DNA of 64,000 bases from Eledone cirrhosa (GCA_964016885.1 OZ024744.1:88474001-88538000); one strand, 5' to 3'. Positions 269 to 62,847 are shown, counted from the first letter of the stretch. Numbers and translations: made by a program. Notes: a model not told the origin generated them from the sequence alone.

Positions 269-391
269 AGTGGTGGAACACTGGAAAGTAATATCCGTAG
301 TGGTAGCGCACTCAGTCCATGGGACGAGTGAGGATCCGCTAAGGTGAAACAATTGTTCTCGGTATGGTGAACTAACTGTTGCGTAACCACT
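269..391. mobile_element. Miniature PLE-derived insertion: inverted 3' tail plus truncated hammerhead arm, in (AT)n
   Basis: 269-328 is the reverse complement of 41454-41513; 325-391 matches 41378-41445; microhomology cgag at the junction. Confidence 0.75.
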
Positions 392-589
392 TATATATAC
401 ACTTTTGAAGCTATTTTACCATTTTGACGCTATAGTCACTTATATATTATGGAATACTGTTGGTTTCTTGCTACAATGATTTCTATACTTTTCATTTATA
501 TATATATAATACATATGTATACTAGATATATATGTGCACGTGTGTGTCGTATAAAGATTGTGATGAAACTGTTAAATGTATATGTGATA

Positions 590-873
590 CATACATACGC
601 AAATACATACATGTATGCATACATACGTACATACATACGTACATTCATACATACATACATACATTCATACATGCATGCATACGTACGTACATACATAGAC
701 GCATAGATACATACATACATACATACATACATACATACATACATACATACATACATACATACATACATACATACATACGTACGTACGTACGTACGTACAT
801 ACATACATACATACATACATACATACATACATACATACATACATACATACATACATACATACATACATACATA
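590..873. repeat. (ATAC)n microsatellite
   Basis: Direct reading; source of the YVCM/HTYI pseudo-ORFs. Confidence 0.97.
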
Positions 874-1240
874 TGGAGATCAGCTGCCCACTTGATGTAA
901 ATGTTGTCAGAAAAATACAAAAGGAGGACATCTACGGACCATTGATGAGGAGTTTACAAACCCAGTATCCAAGATACACCTTTAGCTTCATACCCATCAT
1001 TATTGGAGCTACAGGTTATATACCAGCCCGCTTGGACCAAAGTATGACTGAACTTGGATTTGCGGACAAAAAGCGCAGCTCCCTAATTCATAGTCTACAA
1101 ATGGCTGCGATAGCTGGCACCTTCAAAATTTACAAAACATTCTTGCGATTCCAGGGATGACAATTTCTTTTCTTTTACAACCTTGCCACCAGGAAGGTGG
1201 CCGGTCAAAAAAAATATACTCGAAATTAAGAGAAAGAGAT
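873..1240 (+). mobile_element. 3' fragment of restriction-like-endonuclease LINE (R4/Dong-like)
   Basis: EISCP...PIIIGA.G C-terminus; 3' UTR with gccacc/ggtggc hairpin; near-identical to 2501-2870; (ATAC)n on both sides. Confidence 0.85.
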
Positions 1241-1530
1241 ATATACATACATACATACATAGGTACGTACTTACATACGTACATACATTCATATATAAAT
1301 GATGGCTGCATCTCAATTTCTAGAATTGCCATCACTTGATCATTTTCTAACACATTGATGACATTATCTCTCGTGAGAACTTTTACATAAGCTGCAGCGA
1401 AAGGACAGAAAAAATACATTTTCGCCTACGGCCAGCCATGCACATGCATCACACGTAAAATCCATTTCGATCAAGTGATGCCTGTGCCTGAAGATTTTTT
1501 TTCTAAGTTAAGAAAGGCCTTGCTCTAGAC

Positions 1531-1816
1531 CAGTGATTGGCAACTTGTGGCCCGCGAAGGTTTCTGAATGGCTCGCCTAAGTCACCTAAGTGAAATCTTT
1601 CTGATTTTTTTTTACCTCAAATTTTCAGTCGTAATTTATCTTTACATCATTTTTACGATTGAGGAAAGTAACGTATACGAATTCTGAAGAAACAAATCAG
1701 AGCAACCTGAGTTACCGCAATTCTTTTTTTTTCTAATGTGGACACGAATGTAAATTAGCCTGATGATGAGAAATATCTCATGCGGCCCACTTCCCGAAAA
1801 AGTTTGCCGATGTCTG
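1531..1816. mobile_element. hAT-type MITE
   Basis: Imperfect TIRs cagtgattggcaac / gtttgccgatgtctg; perfect 8-bp TSD ctctagac (1523-1530, 1817-1824). Confidence 0.8.
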
Positions 1817-58639: not shown

Positions 58640-59520
58640 GTTGCAGAAAATGTTTGTAGAAAGAAACAGGAACTATTTATTGCTTTTGTCGAATGGACCA
58701 AAGCCTTTGACACTGTCAATCGCAAAGTTCTGAGGAAAATCTTCAAAAAGCTTGGCATACCTGACAATATGCTGATCGATTATGTCAAATAGTGAATGCT
58801 CTTAACCCTCTGGTGTCACAGAAGGCTCATGTTCTCTTTACGTTATTCTTCTCTGTATTACACCCGTGAGCATTTGCCGGCTCGGTCACTACTGGTTGAA
58901 TTCCGTACATCAGCTGGGTTGTTCAACCATCAGTGCTTTAAGCTTAAAATACTTACACGAACAAGTTTTATTCGTGATTTACTGTTTGCTTATGATGCTG
59001 CACTTGTTGCAACATCCCTTGAAGAGGTACAATAACTGATGAACCGCTTCACACTTGCCAGTAAAGCAATTGGTTTAACAATCAACATTAAGTAAACTAA
59101 GGTGGTACATCAACCAAAGCCAACCACCACTAGACAAGCTGATGTTGGGTAAGGACATCCGGGGTGTAGGTATACCCATGTTCCCATCACTGTTAATGGC
59201 AAGAATCTGAAGTATGTCTGCATCCCTGGATGAGGAGATTGTCAATCGCCTCTCTAAAGCAATTGACACATATAATTGGTAAACTACATCATCGTCTATA
59301 GAGTGTCTGAAGTATATCCTTAAAACCGAAAGTTGCAGTTTATCGTGCAGTGGTACTGACAACACTTTTATACGACTCACGCTAGGGACACTTTATCGAA
59401 ACCCACATTTATAGGCTTGATATCTTCTACAAATATAATCTTCGCTCTTTCTGTTGCTATACCCTTTCTGACAGAATTTCTAGGGCCGGCCGCTTGAAGA
59501 GGTGCATCAACGTTGGGATT
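58640..59520 (+). pseudogene. Decayed RTE (BovB-like) RT
   Basis: FIAFV..TKAFDTVNR..L.KI..KLG.P; LFN; RDLLFA.DAAL; GLTINI.K. Confidence 0.8.
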
Positions 59521-60390
59521 AATCCTTTAACTTCTCATTCCCTTTTCTGGATTTTATATCAAGCGTAAAACGAATATTTTTCTTCCTTGTACTGTGCCGT
59601 TTGCTTTGTTATCTCTGTTTGCCTTTTGCATATATATATATATACATATATATATATATAAATATGGAGGAGGTTATAGTTCACTTGAAGCATTGTGTAA
59701 TGAGGTATAAACGTTAGAATATGTGTAATAAGGCCAAGACAATGCAGATATGGACATAGAAAAAGAATGCAATAGTGAGAGATATTGGTGAGAATTAGTC
59801 TTTCACCTTGAATTTATTTAAATGTCCTTAATTTTCGAGATAATATCTCTTCTTCGGAGGGAAGTAAAAGTCTCAGACCAGCGTCTAAATTTCCAATGAA
59901 GCCATGCTGACCGGAAATAGTATAGAGTTCTAACTTTAATATCAAAGAATTAAAATTAGGTGGGTAAAGAGTAGTCTCCCTTTAAGAGGGGTTTGTTTAT
60001 GTTTTTGTTGTGTTATGTAAATTTTATATGCGTGCCTGTATATGTGTGTGGGAGAAAGCATGAAGGTGTAGGTATGTGTGTGTGTGTGAGTGTGGGAAGA
60101 TAGGTCTAATCGTAAAAGTGGGGGGTAGGTGTTATCTGGTGTTAGAACTGGTTTTGTGTGTGTATGTGTGAGAGAGAATAAGTGGGGGTGTGTGCGTGCG
60201 TGTGTGTGGGGTGTGTAAAGTGGGGCTAGAGGCCCTATCAGGTTATAAATTGGGTGTTGAGCTCTAGTCTATTATTGATTGGTGGATGTGTTCTATCTAT
60301 AATGAGTGCTTCCTTGATTCTAAGATTACCGAGGTTTCTTTCTTTAGTTTCTATCCTAACTGTTATGTTTTTATCAGTGTTTTTGCATTT

Positions 60391-62104
60391 CCTCTCCAGG
60401 ACACAACAACTCGCCCTGAAGAACCTACGGAATAAGGAACTTATTTACTTACCATCCGACAAAGGTAAAGAGTTCTGCGTCATCTCTCAAGCCACATACA
60501 ATAACCTAGCCTTCGAACACCTAAGCGACAGTGAACTGTACACAGTGATCCCGGACATGACCGCAGCCCAAATCGAAAAACAGACCAACTCCATTTGGTT
60601 CGATATCTGTAGGAGAAGACAACTCCCGAATAAAATTAAACTCAACTACACCACTAGAAATAGCAGACTGCCCACTTTCTACCACCTCATCAAGACCCAC
60701 AAGAATAGCACTAAGACGCATATAAGACCCATCGTCTCTAGCATAGAAGGACCCCTATACAAAATTTCCTGGCTTCTCTCCCAGGTCCTCAAGCCTCTAC
60801 TCTCCACCTTCCCCGGACATGTCAGTAGCTCCGACGAAGTTATACGTAGATTACACCAACTCCAGCCAGAACAACTTAAACTTAATAAATACGCTTTTAG
60901 CCTCGACGTTGTCTCCCTCTACACTACAGTCCCCGCTCACCCAGCTGTCGATTTATTGACGGACTGCGTGGTCGCAGAGAACATCCACTGCTACGGCCTC
61001 CACCCGACGGACATACACCAACTTTTGTCCTTCACGGTAGACAACACGTACTTCACCTTCCACCACCACACATACAGACAGACAACAGGATTACCCATGG
61101 GATCCAGCCTCTCTGGCCTGCTGGCCATCACTTACATGAACCAGCTAGAATGCCGAGCCCTCAACACCTGCCATTCCCATGCCTTCTTCACCCGATATGT
61201 AGATGACATACTCATCCTTACATCATCCCGTGAAGAGGCAGAGAAAATATACACAACATTCTCCAGCATGGACGCCAGTATAAAGTTCAGCATTGAACAC
61301 CCCGATGACCGCGGATCCCTATCCCTGCTGGACTTCCAACTCAGGGTAACAGAGGAAGGCAACATCCACACCTGCTTCTATAAAAAATCCGCCAGCAGGG
61401 ACCTGTTCGTACATTTCAGATCGGCCCTCCCACTCGGTGCCAAGTTCGGATACATAAAGAACGAACTGGCACGTATCAAGAACAAATGCACCGACGCCAG
61501 AGACCGAGACACACACACCACACATTTCCTGGAAGTACTCAAACTGAACGGATACACGACATCCACCACAAACCGTGCCAGAAAGAACAGAGGACACCAC
61601 ACCCGAGGCACTAACACTTGCTTCCTGAAGCTCCCACACTTCAGTGAAGAAACAACAACAGCCATCCGCAGAGCCATCAGACGAGAAGGTCTGGATATTC
61701 AACTGGCCCATTCGGGTCCTTCTTTGCGTGGACGGCTAGCTAAGAGACACTCCACCAGACATGACAACTGCTGCAGACTAGCCAACTGCCCCATCAACGA
61801 CACAGACCTATGCCACCAGGCTTACGTAGTTTACAGACTAGAGTGTGACAAATGCAACAACTTCTACGTAGGTAGCACCACCAGACCACTCCACATAAGA
61901 ATAAAAGAACACCTCAATACTAACGCTTCCTCATTTAAGAAACACCTAGTTAAATGCAAAAACACTGATAAAAACATAACAGTTAGGATAGAAACTAAAG
62001 AAAGAAACCTCGGTAATCTTAGAATCAAGGAAGCACTCATTATAGATAGAACACATCCACCAATCAATAATAGACTAGAGCTCAACACCCAATTTATAAC
62101 CTGA
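60391..62104 (+). CDS. PLE RT + GIY-YIG endonuclease, uninterrupted but 5'-truncated
   Basis: PSDKG, KTHK..RPIVS, SLDVVSLYT, GLPMGS, RYVDD, VVYRLEC..C..FYVGST.R....R.KEH. Confidence 0.92.
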
Positions 62105-62481
62105 TAGGGCCTCTAGCCCCACTTTACACACCCCACACACACGCACGCACACACCCCCACTTATTCTCTCTCACACATACACACACAAAACCAGTTCTAA
62201 CACCAGATAACACCTACCCCCCACTTTTACGATTAGACCTATCTTCCCACACTCACACACACACACATACCTACACCTTCATGCTTTCTCCCACACACAT
62301 ATACAGGCACGCATATAAAATTTACATAACACAACAAAAACATAAACAAACCCCTCTTAAAGGGAGACTACTCTTTACCCACCTAATTTTAATTCTTTGA
62401 TATTAAAGTTAGAACTCTATACTATTTCCGGTCAGCATGGCTTCATTGGAAATTTAGACGCTGGTCTGAGACTTTTACTTC

Positions 62482-62516
62482 CCTCCGAAGAAGAGATATT
62501 ATCTCGAAAATTAAGG
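62482..62516 (+). ncRNA. Minimal hammerhead motif (mirror copy 59826-59860 minus)
   Basis: cct-CCGAAGA-gagat/atctc-GAAA-atta-agg. Confidence 0.65.
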
Positions 62517-62847
62517 ACATTTAAATAAATTCAAGGTGAAAGACTAATTCTCACCAATATCTCTCACTATTGCATTCTTTTTCTATGTCCATATCTGCAT
62601 TGTCTTGGCCTTATTACACATATTCTAACGTTTATATATATATAAATATATATATATATATACATATATATATATATATATATATATATATATATATATA
62701 TACATATATATATACATATATATATATATACATATATATATACATATATACATATATATATATATATATACATATATATATATATATATATATATATATA
62801 TATATATATATATATATATATATATATATAAATATATATATATATAT

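Follow-up and report, generated by a model that had tools for sequence, protein, structure and literature searches.

Penelope-like elements in the window

The window analysed here, 64,000 nucleotides from Eledone cirrhosa (GCA_964016885.1, OZ024744.1:88474001-88538000), is AT-rich animal DNA with approximately 90 (AT)n runs. It holds a series of insertions built from two opposed arms, most of them in these runs. Judged by their coding sequences and motifs, the insertions are most likely endonuclease-bearing Penelope-like elements (PLEs) of Hydra-like, Neptune-like and DKG/CCHH families, together with short hammerhead-bearing derivatives of their pseudo-long terminal repeats (pLTRs). An earlier note, made from the sequence alone, had listed 16 sites and described them as inverted pLTRs with a tail extension, an identification that is backed by the presence of a reverse transcriptase with a C-terminal GIY-YIG nuclease and of hammerhead-like cores, and that agrees with the published architecture of PLEs.

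Coding sequence is present at only 3 of the 16 sites. The open reading frame (ORF) at 60.4 kb has 202 homologs, whose full-length forms are 830–900 amino acids long; the best named matches are Octopus bimaculoides proteins, at 61–63% identity, which points to an octopus-like host. The ORFs at 14.2, 18.4, 31.5–33.6 and 39.2–41.0 kb have no Pfam match and were assigned by alignment to the 60.4-kb ORF. Clade labels were taken from motifs described in PMC8557442. The ORFs at 18.4, 31.5–33.6 and 39.2–41.0 kb share with the Hydra clade of that paper a C-terminal CxxC and CxH, the absence of CCHH, and insertion in (TA)n; the CxCX5C linker, also a Hydra-clade feature, is found in two of the three, the 39.2-kb piece being without that part. 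The 14.2-kb ORF has a CX4CxxC linker and is Neptune-like by its motifs. Because the 60.4-kb ORF has DKG and CCHH while the 14.2-kb ORF has the CX4CxxC linker, the pattern described below spans more than one clade. With hammerhead cores that align in their arms and point outward, the short insertions can be taken as pLTR fragments of such elements.

Two other identities were considered and rejected. Naiad elements, which have an N-terminal GIY-YIG domain and no canonical hammerhead, are ruled out by the C-terminal endonuclease of all four ORF-bearing families. DNA transposons with terminal inverted repeats, including miniature inverted-repeat transposable elements (MITEs), have equal ends, whereas the ends here are unequal at 15 of the 16 sites.

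The Hydra-like ORFs at 18416-19858 and 32757-33623 contain asparagine-rich stretches before the nuclease linker, which may be compared with the N-rich inserts of rotifer Penelopes (PMC3846280). Two copies of a Hydra-like family, at 39033 and approximately 42036, share their terminal base, which adjoins (GT)n/(CA)n with (AT)n before it.

Anatomy of the paired arms

The central claim of the earlier note was that each listed insertion consists of two opposed segments with their 3' ends outward, one of which ends before the other. Self-comparison of the window, direct reading, and alignment in register of all 16 sites showed this to hold at 15 of them, with tails (the excess of the long arm over the short) of 34–162 nt, as listed in Table 1. 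BLAST E values for the arm pairs range from 1e-6 to 0. The site at 26761 fits in part: it has a short-ended 42-nt piece and a long arm of the same family, but it is not a clean pair, and its tail breaks off before the (AT)n. The statement that all sites lie in (AT)n is largely correct, except that the short arm at 37863 adjoins (CT)n/(AG)n; the flanks on either side consist of microsatellite sequence. That the longer arm reaches the true end is backed by a second copy or by reads at 269, 10841, 42352, 11041, 44377 and 59663, and roughly at 12911; elsewhere the arm is simply the longer of the two, and at 41526 it ends about 11 nt short of its family's longest end. The four junction motifs quoted in the note (gtttata|cctc, ttcatata|actg, aacaatat|cgg and ttcctat|tacc) are exact in the sequence. 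As the note also stated, the ORF may lie on either arm, being on the tailed arm at 16.4–19.9 kb and on the tail-less arm at 60.4–62.6 kb. In each arm the ORFs and the hammerhead-like cores are directed outward.

Table 1. Paired-arm insertions and PLE reading frames in the window (strand in brackets; tail = excess length of the long arm)
Site	Coordinates	Arms or domains	Tail (nt)	Remarks
269	270-391	long arm 270-331 (-); short arm 325-391 (+)	68	non-overlapping, element gap about 6 nt; short arm begins at hammerhead core
10841	10842-11029	long arm (-); short arm (+)	83	join in hammerhead stem II
11041	11041-12889	short-ended arm (-, about 1.8 kb); long arm of 40 nt, tail only (+, 12850-12889)	about 85-90 (against family copies)	non-overlapping
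12911	12908-13705	short-ended arm (-, 12908-13451); long arm (+, 13452-13705)	56	Neptune-like; arms 87% alike; short-ended arm contains ORF 3' end
16411	16412-20702	long ORF-bearing arm (-, 16412-19860); short arm (+, 19861-20702)	162	arms identical at 833/842 nt; junction holds 14-bp palindrome
25758	25758-26265	long arm (-); short arm (+)	34	short interspersed element (SINE), about 25813-25997, breaks long arm
26330	26330-26692	short-ended arm (-, 26330-26551, hammerhead core); long arm (+, 26551-26692)	104	overlap 38 nt
26761	26762-27640	short-ended fragment (42 nt); unrelated stretch (about 520 nt); long arm of same family		tail broken
28316-31459		long arm (-); short arm (+, 31406-31459)	about 110	tail split by long interspersed element (LINE; reverse transcriptase, about 28410-31172)
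37863	37865-38183	short arm (-) at (CT)n; long arm (+) at (AT)n	75	hairpin centre
Equal-ended pair	38196-38928			in (AT)n; both ends at same place within 5 nt; absent from earlier note
41526	41526-41941	short arm (-); long arm (+)	78	near-perfect foldback (164/167); hammerhead core in each arm
42352	42353-42540	long arm (-); short arm (+)	77	10841 family; join in hammerhead stem II
44377	44378-44523	short arm (-); tail-only long arm (+)	about 85-90 (against family copies)	non-overlapping, gap about 40 nt; counted once
46545	46546-46898	long arm (-); short arm (+) reaching further in	88	98/98 identical
56148	56148-56688	short arm (-, about 78 nt); long arm (+)	56	hammerhead core at 56342
59663	59662-62636	long arm (-, 59662-60390); short-ended ORF-bearing arm (+, 60391-62636)	44	arms 685/685 identical; no microhomology at junction
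ORF	60392-62104 (+)	reverse transcriptase PF00078, E 5e-16; C-terminal GIY-YIG PF01541, E 8e-5		PLE, 5'-truncated; DKG and CCHH motifs
ORF	18416-19858 (-)	CxCX5C linker; no Pfam hit		PLE, 5'-truncated, Hydra-like

Within insertions the two arms are 87–100% identical (14 pairs, 11 of them above 92%), and separate copies are 78–94% identical (6 comparisons). Three of the 14 pairs are identical throughout, over 685, 98 and 61 nt; the other 11 differ by 1–25 substitutions. Seven of the 15 pairs (269, 11041, 12911, 26330, 44377, 46545 and 59663) have sequence in the short-ended arm with no counterpart in the long one, and in the remaining 8 the short arm is wholly contained in the long arm. At three of the seven (269, 11041 and 44377) the arms do not overlap at all: the long arm consists of the tail only and stops 6–40 nt before the start of the short arm, leaving gaps of approximately 6, 35–40 and 40 nt. 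A fourth pair overlaps by 38 nt, and the other 11 are unlike this. The reading of 11041 and 12850-12889 as one insertion is based on a 60% resemblance of the intervening sequence to a family 3' untranslated region; a SINE with a 14-nt target duplication (12323-12540) lies inside the short arm there.

A second copy of the 44377 unit, with approximately 170 nt of left-hand flank, lies in another (AT)n run at a distance of 2.77 kb (44181-44589 and 46954-47364); the copy at 46963-47302 is identical at 340 of 343 positions. Such a flanked copy might have arisen by read-through retrotransposition or by local templated repair.

Fixed ends and the pairing of long and short arms

Any two unequal ends can trivially be called long and short unless the two end classes are fixed, and fixedness was therefore checked; where they could be tested, the ends proved to be fixed. 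The short end falls on the identical base at 11041, 41526 and 44377; at 11029, 42540 and 44728 it varies by no more than 3 nt. The long end is identical at 270, 28104 and 41513, and likewise at 10842, 16347 and 42353. Single-arm copies, of which there are at least eight, also stop at one or other end, being long-ended at 4775, 16153, 16347, 28104 and 41513 and short-ended at 34932, 44728 and 45345.

Both ends of the 59.7-kb family recur in independent sequencing runs, which were compared for one stretch in 4 of 10 runs; these are 90–95% like the window, and so come from other individuals or species. Among the matches listed (24 of 396 rows), loose ends into (AT)n fall exactly at the long end, 59662, in 26 contigs (X3) and 183 raw reads (X8), and exactly at the short end, 59706, in 2 contigs (X3); the contig tallies of 26 and 2 are not copy numbers. 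The joints 60390/61950 were discarded as support for the window junction, being only the normal continuation of the family.

The pair list comprises all local inverted pairs from an unbiased search, and the counts cover the 64-kb window. SINE copies, simple repeats, pairs between separate insertions and the 44377 duplicate were left out, as were 4941-6302, 10014-10408, 39033-41250 (where the right arm is cut off) and 26761. Of 16 scoreable pairs, 15 are mixed, that is, they join one long and one short arm (p = 2.6e-4 against a coin toss), where random pairing of two end classes yields at most half mixed pairs. The figure becomes 15 of 17 (p = 1.2e-3) if a repeat at 45364-46431 is counted, and is 6 of 6 (p = 0.016) at sites where both end classes are independently fixed. 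Pairing is thus strongly, but not absolutely, of the long/short type. The repeat at 45364-46431 has equal-ended 120-bp inverted repeats (84% identical) in (AT)n and no hammerhead core, and may be a MITE.

An RTE-like family served as a control: of its three 3' ends located in these (AT)n runs, none has an inverted partner. Its three copies (13755, 20718 and 62848) are 95–98% alike at the 3' end, are inserted in (AT)n, and share one orientation. At 13755-16153 a left-facing RTE-like 3' end of about 180 nt is fused to a right-facing, 5'-truncated Neptune-like PLE with both ends in (AT)n, making a tail-out pair of two unrelated retroelements; 39033-41513 may be a similar mixed pair.

Among 44 loci of metagenome relatives, inverted arms were found near the ORF in five (L012, L017, L022, L035 and L042), none of which could be scored as long or short in the absence of second copies or target duplications. 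In L017 (131-2702) there are 64-bp inverted arms, of which the left ends at (CCTA)n and the right continues for 110 nt to the contig end; this is possibly a long/short pair at another microsatellite.

Hammerhead cores and microhomology at the ends

Motif scans, on which all hammerhead calls are based, found 19 hammerhead-core motifs in the window, compared to a mean of 3.5 and a maximum of 9 in 50 local shuffles; cores with stems number 4, against 0 in the shuffles. The cores align in seven arms or copies, on the strand that points outward, and most arms have a hammerhead-like core, with partial or degenerate forms at 10841, 25758, 37863, 38196, 44377 and 59663. Rfam searches gave no hammerhead hit at the gathering score, and none among the matches listed (150 of 178, and a further 24), and minimum-energy folds beat all shuffles for only 1 of 11 candidates. 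PLE hammerheads are described as minimal, in agreement with their being missed by Rfam (PMC4209133).

In eight arms or copies (325, 10977, 13452, 16222, 42485, 44475, 44682 and 46731) the inner end, created by 5' truncation, lies at the hammerhead core or stem II. The position of these ends, upstream of the predicted cut site, suggests stalling of the reverse transcriptase at the ribozyme fold. Single-arm copies of the 10841 family likewise break at stem II, which marks it as a recurrent stop.

The earlier note held that the short arm often stops at a TA-like microhomology. Overlaps of 3–5 nt are found at 6 of 16 short ends and none at another 6, and the four quoted junctions are among the six best. 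Summed over all short ends, the overlap with the adjoining repeat is 29 nt against 16.2 expected (p = 0.02), and at least 3 nt is seen at 6 of 16 ends against 1.9 expected (p = 0.006; p = 0.0004–0.003 when one site is taken per family). Under a null in which the primer chooses its phase, p = 0.48. As a rule that sets the short end, microhomology was rejected, the overlap being 0 nt at 11041, 41526 and 44377, which form the best-sampled family; it is a bias and not a determinant.

A proposed twin-priming model for PLE integration

The best mechanism for these insertions appears to be twin target-priming at two start sites, to which we assign a probability of roughly 0.55. The GIY-YIG nuclease would nick both strands of the (AT)n, which reads alike on each strand, and both 3'-OH ends would then prime reverse transcription on element RNA. 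Start at the distal site would give the tailed arm, and start at a proximal site 34–162 nt upstream the tail-less arm, so that each arm would be a separately primed cDNA. Priming would probably take place on one RNA or in one dimeric particle, thereby coupling the choice of sites. Both cDNAs would end early, often at the hammerhead fold, and their 3' ends would be joined via a hairpin, via a few complementary bases, or bluntly. This elaborates the suggestion in the earlier note that both target ends prime, one terminally and one internally, which is the best reading of the non-overlapping pairs and of the further-reaching short arms, but four tight foldbacks fit self-priming equally well.

The main competitor is a single priming event followed by copy-back, in which one cDNA, begun at the distal site, turns back on itself at a hairpin or palindrome and is copied, the copy ending, or being captured by the opposite target end, before the tail is reached. 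It was proposed from palindromes at inverted junctions (PMC3846280), and it makes long/short pairing automatic and the arms nearly identical. The window has suitable junctions, at hammerhead stem II (10841 and 42352), at loops of 4–8 nt (41526 and 37863), at the 14-bp palindrome of 16411 and at a palindrome at 56148, and in X8 there is a strand-change joint at 59868/59868 in 21 reads from 2 starts. The seven further-reaching short arms cannot, however, be a copy of the long arm's cDNA, and a cDNA begun at the short site cannot create the tail; nor can copy-back yield the three non-overlapping pairs. Moreover, one family has a single base as its short end both in the 41526 foldback and in the non-overlapping pairs 11041 and 44377, which makes an internal start site the more economical single cause, and single-arm copies also stop at short ends, so that the short end does not come from the stopping of copy-back. 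Copy-back is likely to be true for some copies, but we consider it improbable as the general explanation.

Twin priming also accounts for the long arms that consist of tail only. These are to be expected if, on a single RNA, priming at the internal site obstructs the distal primer. They are left unexplained by a third proposal, namely that both arms are made with a tail and that the nuclease then cuts at the border between pLTR and tail on resolution, so that one arm loses it. An endonuclease-mediated resolution of this kind has been suggested (PMC8557442), recognition by the fly Penelope nuclease depends on the tail (work cited in PMC11167929), and trimming would explain the fixed short ends, the single tail per insertion and the slight TA bias. 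On the other side, the tail borders coincide with two reverse-transcription start sites (PMC11167929), and the three long arms halt just before the internal site. Trimming seems to us somewhat less probable again than copy-back.

It might also be that the head-to-head unit arose rarely and was copied whole from read-through transcripts, so that the pairing is inherited. The repetition of 44377 with 170 nt of flank and the common place of the junction in 10841 and 42352 are what such copying would give, but one family has three different junctions in its three copies (11041, 41526 and 44377), and the breaks at stem II in single-arm copies of the 10841 family point to a recurrent stop instead. 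We regard this as a remote prospect.

Several observations weigh against coupled twin priming. The sites share families and are not fully independent, so the p values above are optimistic. One probable PLE pair (38196-38928) is equal-ended; it has a distant likeness to the 37863 family, with both ends past that family's short end, and its hammerhead is degenerate only. At eight sites 'long' is merely relative. Copy-back is as simple an explanation for the eight pairs whose short arm is contained in the long one; four of these turn at tight hairpins (10841, 42352, 41526 and 37863), two of which are hammerhead stem II. In vitro, no difference in start site between the strands was seen for an anole PLE (PMC11167929), which alone predicts random pairing. 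Finally, no bridging of the window junction 60390/60391 was seen among the matches listed (24 of approximately 3100 pieces, in four runs).

The lack of bridging in these four other runs, together with the three pairs that are 100% identical, would also suit an origin of the pairs as foldback chimeras of the assembly or library. In 11 of the 14 measured pairs, however, the arms are separated by substitutions; chimeras would not end at family-fixed positions and then continue into fresh (AT)n and unique flanking DNA; arms that do not overlap cannot result from foldback; later SINE or LINE insertions interrupt two of the arms; and both end types occur in independent runs. An artefact of this kind is therefore very improbable indeed.

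A broader proposal is that PLE integration as such is coupled twin priming, in which the two cut ends are assigned non-randomly to the distal and proximal start sites in at least three PLE clades, and that a single step driven by the dimer, taking the place of ordinary second-strand synthesis, produces the one-sided tail together with the inverted pLTR and the junctions near the hammerhead. We put this forward tentatively, with a little less than even confidence.

Comparison with known systems

The architecture itself is already known; what the window adds is the near-strict mixed pairing, tails of up to 162 nt, and the non-overlapping pairs. L1 elements undergo twin priming: the second target end starts synthesis at an internal place on the same RNA, which produces inverted, non-overlapping segments with a small gap. 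The non-overlapping segments at 269, 11041 and 44377, with their small gaps, are L1-like in this sense. The internal priming site of L1 is not constant but dictated by complementarity, whereas here it is a fixed family position near the 3' end, and most pairs overlap.

PLE copies with an inverted truncated copy, a tail at one end and (TA)n targets have been described (PMC8557442, PMC3846280). The second of these sources also covers the head-to-head arrangement of the arms, palindromes at their junctions, a tail that may be present on one of the inverted pLTRs, and the self-priming hypothesis (PMC3846280). In these papers the tail is optional and 30–40 bp long. In the window it is one-sided at 15 of 16 sites, and among the 12 measured tails 9 exceed 60 nt, only 2 being 30–45 nt and the rest 56–162 nt. 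The passages covered of the two papers give no counts of pair types and no non-overlapping tail-only arms.

The closest biochemical parallel is the green anole Poseidon, whose protein nicks and extends the two target strands in vitro, begins synthesis at two internal sites that lie on either side of the tail, and is predicted to be a dimer (PMC11167929). It shares with the window an AT-rich target and, on the twin-priming reading, two start sites, although clade and host differ. The passages covered report no homology between cut DNA and start site, while the window has nearly always mixed pairs and a mild bias to TA overlap at the short ends.

Neither counts of pair types nor twin priming for PLEs were found in the literature searched, which under-represents subscription papers, and nothing on arm pairing was found in the passages covered of PMC9977147 or of bioRxiv 10.64898/2026.07.22.740005. 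The origin of the inverted repeats and one-sided tails of PLEs has been named an open question (PMC8557442), and the steps beyond first-strand synthesis were left unvalidated (PMC11167929). If pairs are nearly always long plus short, and some do not overlap, then the two target ends make coupled use of the two known start sites; the window thereby turns an open question of mechanism into a prediction that can be counted. Such copies also mimic MITEs and hairpin RNA genes and so confuse repeat annotation; Rfam gave just sub-threshold microRNA matches.

Other repeats in the window

At 44776-45345 (56148 family) and, as a 15-nt repeat, at 38696-38710 there are partial tandems whose tail forms the beginning of the following unit. 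The former is a direct partial tandem with a period of approximately 430 nt, in which a hammerhead-bearing unit without an ORF gives it a retrozyme-like appearance. At 10014-10408 there is an old element that is 70% self-inverted, with a hammerhead core at 10294 and its right end cut by a SINE. Inverted repeats of 68 bp at 4941-6302 flank an ORF (5544-6215, minus strand) that has no Pfam match and that we take, from its motif, to resemble a Helitron helicase fragment. A 108-bp tandem repeat forms two arrays at 35823-37629.

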